A stretch of 64,000 nt of DNA, taken from IMG/VR virus record IMGVR_UViG_3300028840_006907, positions 224,001 through 288,000 of that record. One strand, given 5' to 3'. A program made the position numbers and the translations under genes. Positions 15,026-18,940 of this stretch are shown here, in pieces. Origin of the DNA: a virus. Numbering within the stretch: the stretch's first letter is position 1; each line of letters opens with the position of its first letter. The notes below the pieces were generated by a model, which saw only the letters and a program-made list of their open reading frames with translations, ran no database searches and was not told the origin of the DNA.

Positions 15026-15925
15026 CTAATACAACGTTCTACTTATTTGATGAGTGCGTTGACCCTCTTTTATTACAGAAATTAATGCTTTTAAATCATA
15101 GTCTTTATCACCAACATGACCTGTTTCATGGTCGGTTAAACAGATGCCTGCAGTAATAACGTGGTGACTTTGATCTTTAGTAACAATAGTATTAAATTTC
15201 TCTCCATCGATTTCATATGTTACATAAATATGATCCGATTTTTCATCACTGCTCAGGTATTTACCTCCGGCAAATTCTATATCACGTTGAATCTTTGTTT
15301 TTTTCTTTTCTTCAAGTGCTCGTTCACGTTCTTCTTTGATTTTTAAATCGATTTTGTATTTTATGTTAAAAGCAATTTTCTCCTCCAATGTCAGACCAGA
15401 GAATTTTAATTTAGATGGGTCTCTGAATTCTTTCAGGGACTCATTAAGATAATCTGTAATCATCGGATCGGCTGACATATCCATTGAATCAAACCAGATA
15501 TTAGCTCCGTCAAATCGGCATAGACATTTAGAAAATGTTGTAACCATATCATCGAAAAGAAGAACTGGGTATAATTCTGATACTTTTAATCCCAGATGAT
15601 TACTCTTTATCGGGATCCCAAGATAAAAATCTTTCTTTTTATGTACTAAAACCATTCTTATCTTTGGTAAATATTTAAGATAAGATTGAATCTCATCTAT
15701 TTCCGCTAAATCTATTGCTTCAGCCCGTTTATTATCAAGTGCTTTGAATTTGTACCATCCCGGTTCTGTTTTCGGGATGTTTAAGTAATGAATAATTCCT
15801 TGAATACGGATAATGATTCGGTCATTATAATACACAGGAGAAATGATAGTCTTTTCAGTCATCATTTCTTCCTGTTTCCCTATTTTATCAATAAGGTTTA
15901 AAATATTATCTTTTCTTACGGTCAA
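15026..15925 (-). CDS. hypothetical protein
   Basis: 299 aa ORF between JAB and Ro60-like genes; start overlaps Ro60-like stop. Confidence 0.5.
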   Translation of the reverse strand: MTVRKDNILNLIDKIGKQEEMMTEKTIISPVYYNDRIIIRIQGIIHYLNIPKTEPGWYKFKALDNKRAEAIDLAEIDEIQSYLKYLPKIRMVLVHKKKDFYLGIPIKSNHLGLKVSELYPVLLFDDMVTTFSKCLCRFDGANIWFDSMDMSADPMITDYLNESLKEFRDPSKLKFSGLTLEEKIAFNIKYKIDLKIKEERERALEEKKKTKIQRDIEFAGGKYLSSDEKSDHIYVTYEIDGEKFNTIVTKDQSHHVITAGICLTDHETGHVGDKDYDLKALISVIKEGQRTHQISRTLY

Positions 15926-17462
15926 AAGATTTCCTCACGGGTAAAGGTGTATCCATGATCTCATATAGAAGATCGAGTTTTGATTTTCTGGATAGCAATG
16001 GAATTAATCCAGGCAATCCATAGTAATCGCTACCTTCAGGTTCATAGTAATCGAAAGGTATTCTAGCTTGTTTTAAATACATGCTGAATTCTTTACGACT
16101 CCATGAACTTGGAATGTAAATAATAGTAATAGTAGGAGTCACATTAAATTTTTTAACATAATTATCCCATATCTCAACGAAAAATGGATTATTATTTTCA
16201 CCTTCATCAGTGACCACTATTATCTGTTCTACATAATAGTTTTTTCTAATAAGGTAATCTAATGCTATACCTATGGAAGTCCCACCATTACTTTTTACAG
16301 GTCTGAAAGCCCTTTCCCAGGCAGACATATTCGGTTCATTAGCTGTGATCTCTCTGGCCATTGTATCAAAAGTAATAGCATAGAGAGGAGCTTCTGTAGC
16401 ACCTGAAATAAGAGCCGCAACATTTTTTCCGACTTCGATGGCTTGAGTCATAGAACCTGATTTATCGATAAAGACTGCAGTAGGTACTTTTATAACACCT
16501 TTCTTTTTAATTTGCTGATCTGCAATTTCATCGAGGATCTTTTGAGATTCCTCATTTTTGATCCGACCTGTTTTCTTTGCTTCTTTGGATTTTAAAGCTG
16601 ATACATTTTTAGCTTTTTTAGCTTTTTCCAATTTAGCCGTAATCAATGTTTTTGTATCCTCATTGTCCATGGCACCACGTTCTTCTAGGGAAGCATAGTT
16701 ATTAATAACTTCCTGTGGAGACATAGCATTGATTAGAGCAATCAGAATTGTAGGAGTGATTTGATCAACCAAACCTACAGCCACCGTATAAGGTACTTTA
16801 TGTTCTATAATCAGCTTTGCCACTTCAGTCGGATTATCAGCTTGTGCTATTTTTTCGAAAACATTTAATTTACTGTCCGTAGGACGTTCATTTCCGAAAA
16901 GAATCTTCTGAGCACGTTCACTAGGTGCTATACGAAGAGTAGCATATAATCCTTTAAGATCTTTTGGACTTTTTAGGGCAATAGCATCAAAAAGATCGTT
17001 GTTGGTTTCAATATATTGAAGAAATTTCTCAACATCCCTTTTAAAGGCAGTAGGAATATTTTTGTAAAGACCTACATTTTTTTCTTCAATTTTTACTTCA
17101 TCGATCATTTTTTTCTTCATTTTTATTTTTTTGCCCGTTTTATTTCTGATCTTTATTTTTTTACCTTTAATAAAACCGACCACACGTCTTTTAAGATATA
17201 CAGGTATTTCCCTGAAGAGGGCTAGCCCAACTTCACGGTTGTCAAGAAATTCATCAACAATAAGTGAACCGATGAATACTTCTTTATGATCCCGAATATC
17301 TCCATTCTTGTAGTACCAGCTTCCAAGGTGGGCATAAAACAGCGGATCTGCTTTTTGTAATTCAAGATGGGTATTTTTTAATTTATCTAGGTCCCGGTGA
17401 GGGCAACTCAGAAATGAGTTAAGCATGTTAACTCTGATATCATTTTCGTTAGCTTGGTTCAT
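15906..17462 (-). CDS. rsr: Ro60/Rsr-like protein (TROVE module plus C-terminal vWA domain with MIDAS motif)
   Basis: MIDAS motif AVFIDKSGSM in C-terminal third; IVVTDEGEN resembles Ro60 IVFTDNETF; N-terminal GSWYY motif resembles Ro60 GGTYY; 518 aa; structured tRNA-like RNAs encoded divergently. Confidence 0.7.
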   Translation of the reverse strand: MNQANENDIRVNMLNSFLSCPHRDLDKLKNTHLELQKADPLFYAHLGSWYYKNGDIRDHKEVFIGSLIVDEFLDNREVGLALFREIPVYLKRRVVGFIKGKKIKIRNKTGKKIKMKKKMIDEVKIEEKNVGLYKNIPTAFKRDVEKFLQYIETNNDLFDAIALKSPKDLKGLYATLRIAPSERAQKILFGNERPTDSKLNVFEKIAQADNPTEVAKLIIEHKVPYTVAVGLVDQITPTILIALINAMSPQEVINNYASLEERGAMDNEDTKTLITAKLEKAKKAKNVSALKSKEAKKTGRIKNEESQKILDEIADQQIKKKGVIKVPTAVFIDKSGSMTQAIEVGKNVAALISGATEAPLYAITFDTMAREITANEPNMSAWERAFRPVKSNGGTSIGIALDYLIRKNYYVEQIIVVTDEGENNNPFFVEIWDNYVKKFNVTPTITIIYIPSSWSRKEFSMYLKQARIPFDYYEPEGSDYYGLPGLIPLLSRKSKLDLLYEIMDTPLPVRKSFDRKKR

Positions 17463-17483
17463 AATATCTCATCCTCCTTATGT

Positions 17484-17813
17484 TCAGGTTTCAATTTTTC
17501 CGAAAGTAGCATTTGGTCTAACTGTAATGTTACCATTTTTATGGTGTTCAACAACTAATTCAGCAAATTCTGATGCTGGTCTATCATAATGATCTACTAA
17601 AGCCAATTTAATTTGTTCACCAGTTATATTATCCGATGTGATCTCGGTTCCTGGTTCAATCCCGAGTTGTTCCCATCTGTCTTCTGGGAAAAGATCTTTG
17701 AGATTAATATCTTCAGTTTGACCATCATACATTATATGGACTTCACTCATATGAGCCTCCTTGTAATAAGTTAAAAAAAGAGTCCCGTATATTATACGAC
17801 ACGAGATTAACAT
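17484..17813 (-). CDS. hypothetical small acidic protein; true start probably at internal Met (MSEVH) preceded by AAGGAGG
   Basis: ORF track 109 aa; strong SD upstream of internal ATG near 17750. Confidence 0.4.
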   Translation of the reverse strand: MLISCRIIYGTLFLTYYKEAHMSEVHIMYDGQTEDINLKDLFPEDRWEQLGIEPGTEITSDNITGEQIKLALVDHYDRPASEFAELVVEHHKNGNITVRPNATFGKIET

Positions 17814-17867
17814 TTCATTAAGTAAAAAATTGGGTAGAATATAAATTCTTGTGTGTCATCATGGTAA

Positions 17868-17896
17868 ATAACTTTTTTAAAAAAATTATTGACACA
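17868..17896 (+). promoter_or_regulatory. sigma70-like promoter (TTGACA, 17 nt spacer, TATATT) upstream of the tRNA and structured-RNA array
   Basis: Direct reading of consensus -35 and near-consensus -10 with 17 nt spacer, about 60 nt upstream of tRNA. Confidence 0.6.
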
Positions 17897-17955
17897 CTTA
17901 AAATTTATGGTTATATTATTGACAGTTCTGCACTCTAACTTTTGATGCTTACATA

Positions 17956-18032
17956 GAGAAAATAGCTCAGTTGGTCAGAGCGCGAGATTTAGGTTCTTGA
18001 AGTCTTCGGTTCAATTCCGAATTTTCTTACCA
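17956..18032 (+). tRNA. canonical tRNA, class I; hand-folded anticodon UAG (decodes CUA) with encoded CCA
   Basis: Hand fold: acceptor GAGAAAA/TTTTCTT, D-arm GCTC-AGTTGGTCA-GAGC, anticodon stem CGAGA/TCTTG with loop TTTAGGT, T-arm TTCGG-TTCAATT-CCGAA, discriminator A then CCA. Confidence 0.7.
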
Positions 18033-18081
18033 TAAAATTAGCACCTTCAACTTGTGCAGAACTACTTAAACCAAGAAATAA

Positions 18082-18199: not shown

Positions 18200-18250
18200 A
18201 ATATAGATTGTAAAGTGTTGTAAAATAAATTTGATCTTTGAAAATTATAG

Positions 18251-18436
18251 GATAATGCCTTCTAACCTGTTGGGCTTACAAATTTTACTGGTTCGACTCC
18301 AGGTTCCGCCTCTCGGTCCTTTTGTAAAGATTGTAAAGGATCAGGAGGCGGAACAAGCCGGGTGGTCTGGCGATTGAATGCAAATCAATTTATTTGAAAT
18401 TAACGCTCTTTTAACTTGGGCATTTATCCTTTTTTA
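18251..18436 (+). ncRNA. tRNA-like structured RNA unit 1 (Y RNA/YrlA-like or permuted tRNA): terminal helix, T-arm, closed acceptor-like helix, D-arm, anticodon-like hairpin (loop ATGCAAA), U-tract
   Basis: T-arm CTGG-TTCGACT-CCAG; 10 bp helix GTTCCGCCTC/GAGGCGGAAC; D-arm GCC-GGGTGGTCT-GGC; hairpin ATTGA/TCAAT; flanks GGATAATGCC/GGCATTTATCC pair; TTTTTT follows. Confidence 0.6.
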
Positions 18437-18478
18437 TAGTAATTTATAATTTTATATAAAGTGATCTTTGAAAATATG

Positions 18479-18668
18479 AGGTAAGTGCCTCCTAACATAA
18501 CGGGCTTACAAATTAATAGGGTTCAACTCCCTGTTCCCCCGCCTAAGTCTTTGTCATATAATGATTAAGATTTGGGCGGGGGAACGAGCTGGGTGGTTCA
18601 GCAATCAACGTTTAATTGATGAAAAACATTTTTACGCTCTTTTAACTTAGGCACTTACTCTTTTTATT
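18479..18668 (+). ncRNA. tRNA-like structured RNA unit 2 (Y RNA/YrlA-like or permuted tRNA); anticodon-like loop CGTTTAA
   Basis: T-arm AGGG-TTCAACT-CCCT; helix GTTCCCCCGCC/GGCGGGGGAAC; D-arm GCTG-GGTGGTT-CAGC; hairpin ATCAA/TTGAT; flanks GAGGTAAGTGCC/GGCACTTACTC pair; TTTTT follows. Confidence 0.6.
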
Positions 18669-18684
18669 AAATTGAAATTACAAG

Positions 18685-18857
18685 GAGCACCTTCTAACCT
18701 GTTGGGCTTACAAGTTATTCGGGGTTCAAATCCCTGTCCCGGCACTAGGTTGATTCCCTAAAAGTCAACCCAGTGCCGGGATAGCCAAATTGGTAAAGGC
18801 GACTATATTGAACATAGTAAACAAAACTATCTACGCTCTTTTAACTTGGGTGCTCTT
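18685..18857 (+). ncRNA. tRNA-like structured RNA unit 3 (Y RNA/YrlA-like or permuted tRNA); anticodon-like loop ATTGAAC
   Basis: T-arm CGGGG-TTCAAAT-CCCTG; helix GTCCCGGCACT/AGTGCCGGGAT; D-arm GCC-AAATTGGTAAA-GGC; hairpin ACTAT/ATAGT; flanks GGAGCACC/GGTGCTC pair. Confidence 0.6.
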
Positions 18858-18900
18858 TATATATTTCTCGCAAAAGGAATACAGGGTGAAACAGGAGTAT

Positions 18901-18940
18901 AGGGATTAAGAAGAAATTTTTGATCCCTATTTTATTTTTT
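18901..18940 (+). terminator. putative intrinsic terminator closing the RNA array
   Basis: Stem AGGGAT/ATCCCT followed by TTTTATTTTTT. Confidence 0.45.

Follow-up and report, generated by a model that had tools for sequence, protein, structure and literature searches.

Particles built from Ro60 and Y RNAs are conserved from bacteria to humans, and both the partners of the tRNA-like domain of the bacterial Y RNA called YrlA and the ligand of the MIDAS of Ro60 (its metal ion-dependent adhesion site) are still being sought. Ro60 holds Y RNA at the outside of its ring and takes up 3' ends of RNA in the hole at its centre. YrlA genes share the strand of Ro60, no more than 4 kb away, and the RNA carries the motif GNCGAAN0-1G near its 5' end; its arms follow in the order V, T, AS and D, with the Rsr-binding stem at the position of the anticodon stem (PMC4201824), and it possesses neither an anticodon loop nor a free CCA (10.1101/312249). 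Phage-encoded Ro60 proteins with Y-like RNAs have been described previously (PMC4201824, PMC12135203 and the jumbo-phage survey PMC7824862). In Thermus phage phiLo, the RNAs Yrl1 and Yrl2 are encoded upstream of the Ro60 gene; they were recognised from their CGAA motif together with a stem-bulge-stem shape (PMC12135203; PDB 9KOP, 9L5Y). In the present work, a stretch of 64,000 nucleotides of viral DNA (IMG/VR record IMGVR_UViG_3300028840_006907, positions 224,001 to 288,000), called the window throughout, has been analysed in silico. It contains a gene for a 518-residue Ro60-like protein on the minus strand and an array of five structured RNAs on the plus strand, and this locus probably represents the form that the Ro60/Y-RNA ribonucleoprotein system takes in a huge phage.

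The Ro60-like gene (15906..17462, minus strand) is an open reading frame (ORF) whose product has a predicted ring of helical repeats followed by a C-terminal vWA domain with a complete MIDAS. An earlier reading of this DNA made from its letters only (the sequence-only reading) had pointed to two blocks resembling Ro60, AVFIDKSGSM and IVVTDEGEN, and both are present in the translation. The MIDAS is formed by DKSGSM, GGTS and TDEGEN, and its residues D333, S335, S337, T395 and D419 are invariant in 31 homologues. When an AlphaFold2 model of the protein (pLDDT 82, pTM 0.72) was compared with the PDB by Foldseek, ranks 1-13 were all occupied by Ro60, Rsr or phage Ro60, including phiLo Ro60, human and Xenopus Ro60 and Deinococcus Rsr; these matches cover the full length (527-584 aligned columns) with E of 1e-11 to 5e-8 and TM of 0.55-0.63, and generic vWA proteins begin at rank 14. 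The Ro60 architecture with a MIDAS, as claimed by the sequence-only reading, has thereby been borne out.

A profile of the 31-member family, searched against all PDB sequences, retrieved two chains only, both being the phiLo "TROVE domain-containing protein" (E 0.17), with two aligned segments that are colinear. By hhalign, the family aligns with two canonical Ro proteins from phages, those of Caulobacter phage CcrColossus and Gordonia phage Neville, at a probability of 95.6% and an E of 1.2e-8 over residues 236-430, which comprise the last TROVE helices and the vWA domain; for the N-terminal two-thirds of the protein the assignment to Ro60 is by fold only and not by sequence profile. The Pfam model vWA_Ro60 is weakly matched by eight of the 31 homologues. 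Because of the full-length fold matches, the restriction of the PDB profile matches to TROVE proteins, the hhalign result, the vWA_Ro60 matches and the invariant MIDAS, the protein is, as judged from its model and these alignments, a strongly diverged Ro60 homologue or orthologue beyond the reach of the TROVE model. A basic, lysine-rich beta-hairpin (KKIKIRNKTGKKIKMKKKMIDEVKIEEKNVG) is inserted in the ring at residues ~100-130 (window ~17073-17165, minus strand); this insertion is specific to the family, its glycine and lysine positions are conserved across the members, and it may be an extra RNA-binding element. A match of the protein to phrog_1314 ("HNH endonuclease") was disregarded, being confined to the vWA stretch.

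The RNA array begins with a sigma-70-like promoter on the plus strand (17889..17917), TTGACA-17 nt-TATATT, which agrees with the consensus at 11 of 12 positions (a consensus match only) and upholds, to that extent, the promoter-driven locus of the sequence-only reading. It ends seven bases before the predicted transcription start at ~17924, the first base of RNA0. RNA0 (17924..18063, plus strand, as are all RNAs of the array) consists of a frame around a complete cloverleaf tRNA (ARAGORN, Rfam, R1 hit 17920-18068). Its tRNA core (17956-18032; 65.9 bits, anticodon UAG, CCA encoded) is the sole tRNA found by ARAGORN and Rfam, and it is enclosed by a 10-bp terminal helix of 17924-17933 with 18054-18063. 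RNA1 (18082..18199) combines the frame with a module of three hairpins that is not a tRNA, and RNA_A (18250..18429), RNA_B (18478..18660) and RNA_C (18682..18858) combine it with permuted tRNA mimics whose anticodon-like loops read AUGCAAA, CGUUUAA and AUUGAAC (UGA), respectively. The folding energies of these four RNAs, compared with dinucleotide shuffles, correspond to z = -8.1, -4.7, -7.5 and -6.0, in the same order, and each RNA is closed by a terminal helix. A terminator-like hairpin of 14 pairs with a T-run (18899..18940, plus strand; a consensus match only) closes the array. The sequence-only reading had described one tRNA and four structured RNAs; the four RNAs fold and close as described, and since the tRNA and the RNA at 18082-18199 carry the same frame, the array consists of five RNAs of one class, with the tRNA among them.

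The frame was recognised by reading the homologues obtained from a covariance search, which share a common frame and have very different interiors. The covariance model was built from RNA_A, RNA_B and RNA_C, paralogues that differ by compensatory changes, and was searched across 21 related viral loci; most of them yielded homologues, the lowest E being 1e-10, and each homologue was situated upstream of the Ro-like gene. From 5' to 3' the frame has characteristic elements: (i) the closing helix P1; (ii) a UYUAAC-like loop; (iii) the 5' strand of P2, ending in GC, and single-stranded KUACA; (iv) the enclosed module; (v) A and the strand P2', starting with GC; (vi) 3-5 nt, RACUY and P1'. P1 has 8-25 bp and a wholly different sequence in each copy, with complementarity kept. 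UCUAAC on the 5' side and RACUY on the 3' side make up an asymmetric internal loop. In RNA0 the frame consists of P1 AGUUCUGCAC/GUGCAGAACU, UCUAAC and GAUGC-UUACA ... GCAC-CUUCAACUU, the 3' side reading GCAC...AACUU; in RNA1 it consists of an 11-bp P1, UCUAAU and GGGC-GUACA ... GCGC...GACUU.

When candidates were scanned for with no other demands than a P1 of 8 bp and the anchors TACA and ACTY, 63 were returned, against 20.2 in shuffles. The 18% of the sequence that lies upstream of the gene and is co-oriented with it (17.8-18.9 kb in the window) contains 54 of the 63, and 32 of these 54 also have a 5-bp P2, where ~0.6 would be expected. Two earlier, looser scanners based on regular expressions performed no better than shuffles, and only the stricter version is informative. 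Covariation in P2, which was not a selection criterion, was assessed on an alignment of 47 spliced frames; P2 is 84.8% paired, compared with 35-43% in slid registers, all six of its pairs show double-sided changes, and none of 500 shuffles reaches the observed values. A scan of viral contigs with a 14-base motif was uninformative, with no frame or Ro-like gene among the matches listed (at least 119, as by chance). The frames enclose varied modules, namely tRNAs in normal order (RNA0 and many in related loci), non-tRNA hairpins (RNA1), a T arm with an acceptor hairpin only, or a D arm without an anticodon arm; minimal frames of 70-81 nt hold almost no module.

Thirteen RNAs, namely RNA_A, RNA_B, RNA_C and ten from other loci, contain a module that starts with a T arm and continues with a closed acceptor hairpin, then a D arm and lastly a full anticodon arm. 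The T arm (GGUUCRANUCC) is followed at once by a hairpin with a 6-7-bp acceptor-like stem at its base, which is capped by a tetraloop in some RNAs and reaches 20 bp in the window; behind it come two linking nucleotides (UA or UG in most cases), a D arm that contains GG, one nucleotide and a 5-bp stem with a 7-nt loop. In the alignment of the thirteen, 95.2% of the cells are paired and 19 of 21 pairs are compensatory. The anticodon-like arm is 95% paired with covariation in all five pairs, U33 is present in 12 of 13 RNAs and a purine at position 37 in all 13; the loop of RNA_B has G at position 33. As encoded, RNA_A to RNA_C are not recognised by tRNA models. The modules were un-permuted in silico by cutting the acceptor hairpin open and joining the last hairpin to the T arm in 64 junction variants, and ARAGORN then called a tRNA in 10 of the 12 parsed RNAs (nine robustly), typically in 35-58 of the 64 variants and with anticodons assigned. 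For RNA_C a tRNA (tga) was called in 37 of 64 variants, for RNA_A (gca) in just one, a marginal result, and for RNA_B in none. Owing to the covariation of the helices and the ARAGORN calls after un-permuting, these modules are complete tRNA bodies in circularly permuted order, the acceptor end being sealed, and the frame exits at the variable-loop position.

The anticodon loop of the framed tRNA varies among close relatives, being UAG in the window, UCG in locus L146 (2937-3012, minus strand) and a 6-nt loop in locus L145 (2918-2992, minus strand), and several permuted modules of L145 and L146 have no U33. This turnover of the anticodon loop and the loss of U33 argue against an ordinary decoding constraint. 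As a separate observation, the framed tRNA of the window has a Leu-type anticodon and no long variable arm, which is odd for a decoding tRNA. Stop-codon-reading anticodons also occur in the arrays; UCA is found in L009 (4215-4291, framed) and L011 (4700-4771), the latter labelled "SeC" by ARAGORN, and UUA in a permuted module of L018 (4282-4444). They could relate to the stop-codon recoding of huge phages.

The protein family comprises 1086 matches, of which the best 120 are 55-100% identical and lie on contigs of up to 512 kb. The 21 related loci were retrieved by protein profile (18 distinct after removal of near-duplicates; 26-59% identity), and in all 21 the frame RNAs lie upstream on the strand of the gene, L001 having been checked by eye. 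Every related locus examined (26-80% identity) has an array of one to more than seven frame RNAs within ~3.5 kb upstream, most of them within 2 kb. L145 and L146, with 75-80% identity, share the divergent layout of RNAs and gene with the window; the window has three permuted-type copies, L145 four and L146 two or three, and both relatives also have a framed tRNA. As the divergent layout is repeated in both, the orientation is real and the copy number variable. The divergent pairing noted in the sequence-only reading thus holds for the window, L145 and L146, where the RNAs are on the opposite strand, and is peculiar to that lineage, the 21 other loci being co-directional. A megablast search of 15-22 kb against deposited phages gave no match, and the sole tblastn match was one unannotated 595-kb uncultured phage.

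After the RNAs, the gene order p88, Ro-like gene, p299, JAB and ThiF is conserved (window 13829-17750, minus strand). This operon, including the p88 gene between the Ro-like gene and the RNAs, was overlooked by the sequence-only reading. The p88 gene (17484..17750, minus strand; 88 residues, GGAGG ribosome-binding site) sits just upstream of the Ro-like gene, is found in 14 loci and has been called as a gene in independent assemblies. The C-terminus of the p88 family reads ...ITVRPxAxFG or WG, followed by 0-4 extra residues (KIET in the window), and no relative was found among PDB sequences or in Pfam. As this C-terminal pattern matches that of ubiquitin-like proteins matured by a peptidase, p88 is likely a ubiquitin-like candidate, judged from its C-terminus and neighbours only, and the gene set suggests its maturation by the JAB peptidase and activation by the E1-like ThiF protein. 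A zinc ribbon joined to a JAB/JAMM metallopeptidase is encoded at 14475..14999 (minus strand; 14 loci); its Prok-JAB match (E 1.6e-4) is below the Pfam cutoff, and its motif HTHPSNIMEPSSLD fits HxHx7SxxD and is intact. The ThiF/E1-like adenylyltransferase (213 residues, 13829..14470, minus strand; ThiF E 1.9e-23) was detected in 10 loci, a count limited by flank length.

Directly downstream of the Ro-like gene lies p299 (15026..15925, minus strand), present in 17 of 21 loci and with 54 homologues. No family match was obtained for it, and a PDB profile search gave just one spurious match to a repeat protein. Its AlphaFold2 model (pLDDT 86) shows several small beta-barrels and a long helix, and the fold matches are weak (best E 8e-4, TM <= 0.19) and all to S1, cold-shock (CSD), OB and HIN nucleic-acid-binding domains; p299 is possibly RNA-binding, going by this model. 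A role of p299 as E2 was rejected, the fold matches not being E2-like, and an E2 is not recognisable in the p88-Ro-p299-JAB-ThiF operon. A search for a link between TROVE, JAB and ThiF found nothing relevant in the literature covered. In L146, which is 75% identical, an RtcB RNA ligase gene (779 residues, cut by the end of the locus) lies ~1 kb beyond ThiF (7896-8560, plus strand) and is long enough to hold an intein; its position near the Ro-like operon echoes the bacterial rsr-rtcBA link. No RtcB was noticed among those window proteins that were scanned.

Several findings weigh against a Ro60/Y-RNA system. The TROVE-domain match on which the sequence-only reading had staked its case was not found by Pfam, either in the 518-residue protein at E <= 0.1 or in any of the 31 homologues at E <= 5. 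What the profile check of the window protein did yield was weak vWA matches only. A precomputed TROVE domain is present in none of the best 120 of the 1086 listed homologues, a TROVE match was likewise not obtained when the Ro-like protein was compared with PHROGs and NCBIfam, and the identity to solved Ro60 structures is merely 11-15% at a TM of about 0.6. Covariance models of YrlA (RF02553 in Rfam 15) and Y RNA (Y_RNA), the check proposed for the RNAs, had no match in 17800-19020 at E <= 10; Rfam at the gathering threshold and at E <= 10 gave only the tRNA and chance matches to miRNA-like hairpins. As a positive control, RF02553 was run upstream of the TROVE genes of CcrColossus and Neville, where its scores were 42-44 bits and its E values about 1e-6 to 5e-9. 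The motif GNCGAA occurs in none of the five window RNAs, the sole CGAA being part of the T arm of RNA0. The array lies 0.5-1.4 kb from the Ro-like gene on the opposite strand. The operon with ubiquitin-like, JAB and E1 genes is without counterpart in known Ro systems, and the protein might serve another purpose. Finally, apparently ordinary tRNAs, one with an encoded CCA, are also framed, and the frame could be an element of precursor processing. Of the Rsr plus YrlA-type arrangement proposed by the sequence-only reading, a Ro60-like protein beside tRNA-mimicking, Y-like RNAs remains; the RNAs are not YrlA members, having no RF02553 match and no GNCGAA and keeping the anticodon arm.

The main rival explanation takes up the framed tRNAs. 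Here the frame would be the leader-trailer helix of a tRNA precursor, serving a processing or modification enzyme (of the RNase III, E or P type, or a phage enzyme), and the adjacency to the Ro gene would reflect a shared neighbourhood of RNA metabolism. Many frames do enclose ARAGORN-called tRNAs, RNA0 with its encoded CCA included, P1 reaches an RNase III-like 23-25 bp, and tRNA genes cluster in the same regions. However, the same frame surrounds modules unable to yield a tRNA (acceptor hairpins of 6-7 bp sealed by a tetraloop, three-hairpin modules and minimal forms of 70-80 nt), unframed tRNAs occur in the same loci (L015 2806-3099), the frame resembles the Rsr-binding end of YrlA in its layout, and the linkage to the Ro-like gene is present in every locus examined, which leaves this explanation unlikely. 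An origin of the RNAs as repeats or miniature mobile elements, with terminal inverted repeats that mimic a closing helix and without function as RNA, would suit the tandem paralogues and their varying copy number among close relatives. It is hardly tenable, given that P1 sequences are wholly different between copies and still complementary, that the array is placed between a promoter match and a terminator-like hairpin and that its orientation relative to the gene is fixed; the covariation of P2 and of all tRNA-like helices led to its rejection.

A further explanation concerns the protein, which would mainly be a vWA/helical-repeat scaffold or a target of the p88/JAB/ThiF module without a dedicated RNA partner, the RNA array being a cluster of tRNA-like genes independent of it. 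The strict conservation of the order p88-Ro-p299-JAB-ThiF can be cited in its favour, as can the absence of a TROVE match at the sequence level and the fact that vWA-MIDAS domains often bind protein ligands, including ubiquitin-like domains (e.g. the Foldseek match 8ql1). On the other hand, the full-length fold matches are exclusively to Ro60, with vWA-only proteins scoring far lower, and the homology detected by hhalign reaches into the TROVE helices; conservation of the RNA arrays equals that of the operon, in most loci they are placed directly upstream and share the strand of the gene, and their frame resembles the Ro-binding end of YrlA. This explanation is quite improbable, and it is compatible with the Ro60/Y-RNA reading rather than exclusive of it.

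The preferred reading, a Ro60/Y-RNA system of huge phages, is supported directly by the fold and homology of the protein, the structures and covariation of the RNAs, the family-wide linkage and the operon; from these and by analogy we infer the binding of the frame by the protein, the processing of the array and every functional role. Transcription would run from the promoter at ~17.89 kb to the terminator at ~18.94 kb, and the array would be processed into five small RNAs. The frame would be the docking site for the Ro-like ring, in the way that Rsr docks on the corresponding end of YrlA and of other Y RNAs. The ring could then display or tether the variable module, be it a complete tRNA, a three-hairpin module or a permuted tRNA body, and the particle would act on tRNA or other structured RNA during infection. 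Such a role in handling tRNA or structured RNA is the most likely one, judged by the parallel with Rsr/Y RNA/PNPase and with the repair operon rsr-yrlBA-rtcBA (PMC4201824, PMC7790460, PMC12135203, PMC7824862). The tRNA-shaped modules might recruit tRNA-binding factors, or they might act as uncharged tRNA look-alikes, either decoys or substrates. The products of p88, p299, JAB and ThiF probably modify or regulate the particle. A bolder and rather doubtful proposal is that the ring, loaded by way of the frame, displays a rapidly evolving set of sealed tRNA look-alikes with genuine anticodon loops, which would be decoys or sensors for host anticodon nucleases or other tRNA-targeting defences, the particle being controlled by or coupled to the ubiquitin-like/E1/JAB module, with p88 or p299 as the ligand of the vWA MIDAS. 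If true, this would be a new phage counter-defence organelle that joins Ro60 ribonucleoproteins with ubiquitin-like chemistry.

The protein identical to that of the window is encoded on contigs of 388-469 kb, and what else the window contains is in keeping with a huge phage, with giant ORFs, lectin-fold proteins, an intein-bearing ORF and UvrD. The giant ORFs encode 2337 and 3078 residues (3040-10053 and 22251-31487, plus strand) and are followed by Laminin_G_3/ConA-like lectin proteins (31499-32656 and 37736-38959); these are presumably virion fibre or host-recognition genes. An ORF of 1117 residues (43131-46484, plus strand) contains an intein with a LAGLIDADG homing endonuclease. Large multidomain proteins with methyltransferase, GT2 glycosyltransferase and TPR repeats are encoded at 19016-21643 and 61866-63947 (plus strand); the former also has a GT9 heptosyltransferase domain and, in L145 and L146 as in the window, is encoded beside the RNA array.

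Ro60 proteins accompanied by tRNA-like Y RNAs were already known from phages. What is new is a large Ro60 clade missed by TROVE models, a family of Y-like RNAs whose conserved handle is a different one, permuted tRNA bodies with an anticodon arm, frames around whole tRNAs, large arrays, and a fixed operon with a ubiquitin-like candidate and JAB and E1 genes. The current TROVE and YrlA models overlook this family, although its proteins number more than 1000 and the phage contigs that encode them reach 512 kb. The locus is informative in that each genome has many Y-like RNAs with one handle, the modules range from complete to sealed permuted tRNAs, the anticodon-like loops shift among close relatives and the operon partners are fixed; it offers testable candidates for the binders of Ro-tethered tRNA mimics and for the contacts of the vWA domain. 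The findings also suggest that some of the "tRNAs" counted in huge-phage genomes are modules of Y-like RNAs.

Ubiquitin-like systems that are independent of E2 and tied to tRNA include archaeal SAMP/UbaA/JAMM1 and Thermus TtuB/TtuC. The operon described here shares with them a small candidate ending in glycine, a minimal ThiF-type E1 and a JAMM peptidase, co-encoded here beside tRNA-like RNAs. In contrast to these systems, p88 ends in FG or WG instead of GG, a PP-loop thiolase is not recognisable, and the beta-grasp fold of p88 is a putative one. In circularly permuted tRNA genes, e.g. those of the red alga Cyanidioschyzon merolae, the 3' half precedes the 5' half. The permuted modules likewise place the T arm and the 3' strand of the acceptor before the acceptor 5' strand, the D arm and the anticodon arm. 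Here, however, the acceptor stem has a closed end, in many cases just a tetraloop, there is no discriminator or CCA, and the break lies in the variable loop on a conserved helix resembling a protein handle, where a bulge-helix-bulge splice motif is not present; there is no sign that the modules mature into decoding tRNAs.

The phiLo system resembles this locus in having a phage-encoded Ro60 of low identity to cellular Ro, which is also the best fold and sequence match of the window protein, and Y-like RNAs upstream of the gene. The differences relate to the CGAA motif, which is absent here, to the tRNA-shaped modules, to the gene neighbours and to the identity of about 14-15%. In CcrColossus (L141 3326-3937), three tandem sub-threshold YrlA matches are located upstream of the TROVE gene, and one of them overlaps an annotated tRNA-Gln (3489-3556). 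Tandem Y-like RNAs are thus possible in YrlA systems too, and both arrays and a confusion of tRNA with Y RNA may occur in classical phage Ro loci.

In comparison with Rsr/YrlA, the window protein is invisible to the Pfam TROVE model and the window RNAs have neither an RF02553 match nor GNCGAAN0-1G. The window-type module keeps a closed anticodon arm of 5 bp and 7 nt, whereas YrlA has no anticodon loop, and the frame exits at the variable-loop position, whereas the Ro-binding stem of YrlA continues from the position of the anticodon stem. Some frames here hold whole tRNAs or non-tRNA modules, the arrays are larger, gene and RNAs point in opposite directions in the window lineage, and in place of rtcBA the operon has the ubiquitin-like candidate, JAB and E1 genes. 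The arm order of YrlA (T, closed acceptor-like, D) fits RNA_A to RNA_C and the ten homologues; it does not fit RNA0, with its normal tRNA order, or RNA1, which has no tRNA features. What the two systems have in common is a Ro60-fold protein with a vWA domain and MIDAS, small RNAs within 4 kb of its gene, and an RNA built from a terminal stem, an asymmetric internal loop with the 3' side ending in ACUYG, a second stem and YUAY, followed by a permuted T arm, a closed acceptor-like hairpin, a U8-like linker and a D arm. In the RF02553 consensus, the terminal stem is joined to a loop of 5 nt on the 5' side and one of 8 nt on the 3' side, the latter with AaAcUuG at its end, and these are succeeded by a 7-bp second stem and CUA. 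Set beside the alignment of 47 frames, by inspection and not by a scored alignment, both have a 5' loop of 5-6 nt, a 3' loop of 8-9 nt ending in ACUYG, a second stem of 5-7 bp and CUA or KUACA. Read in this way, the frame would be a diverged homologue of the Ro-binding end of YrlA, in which the contact motif and the junction to the tRNA-like body have changed.

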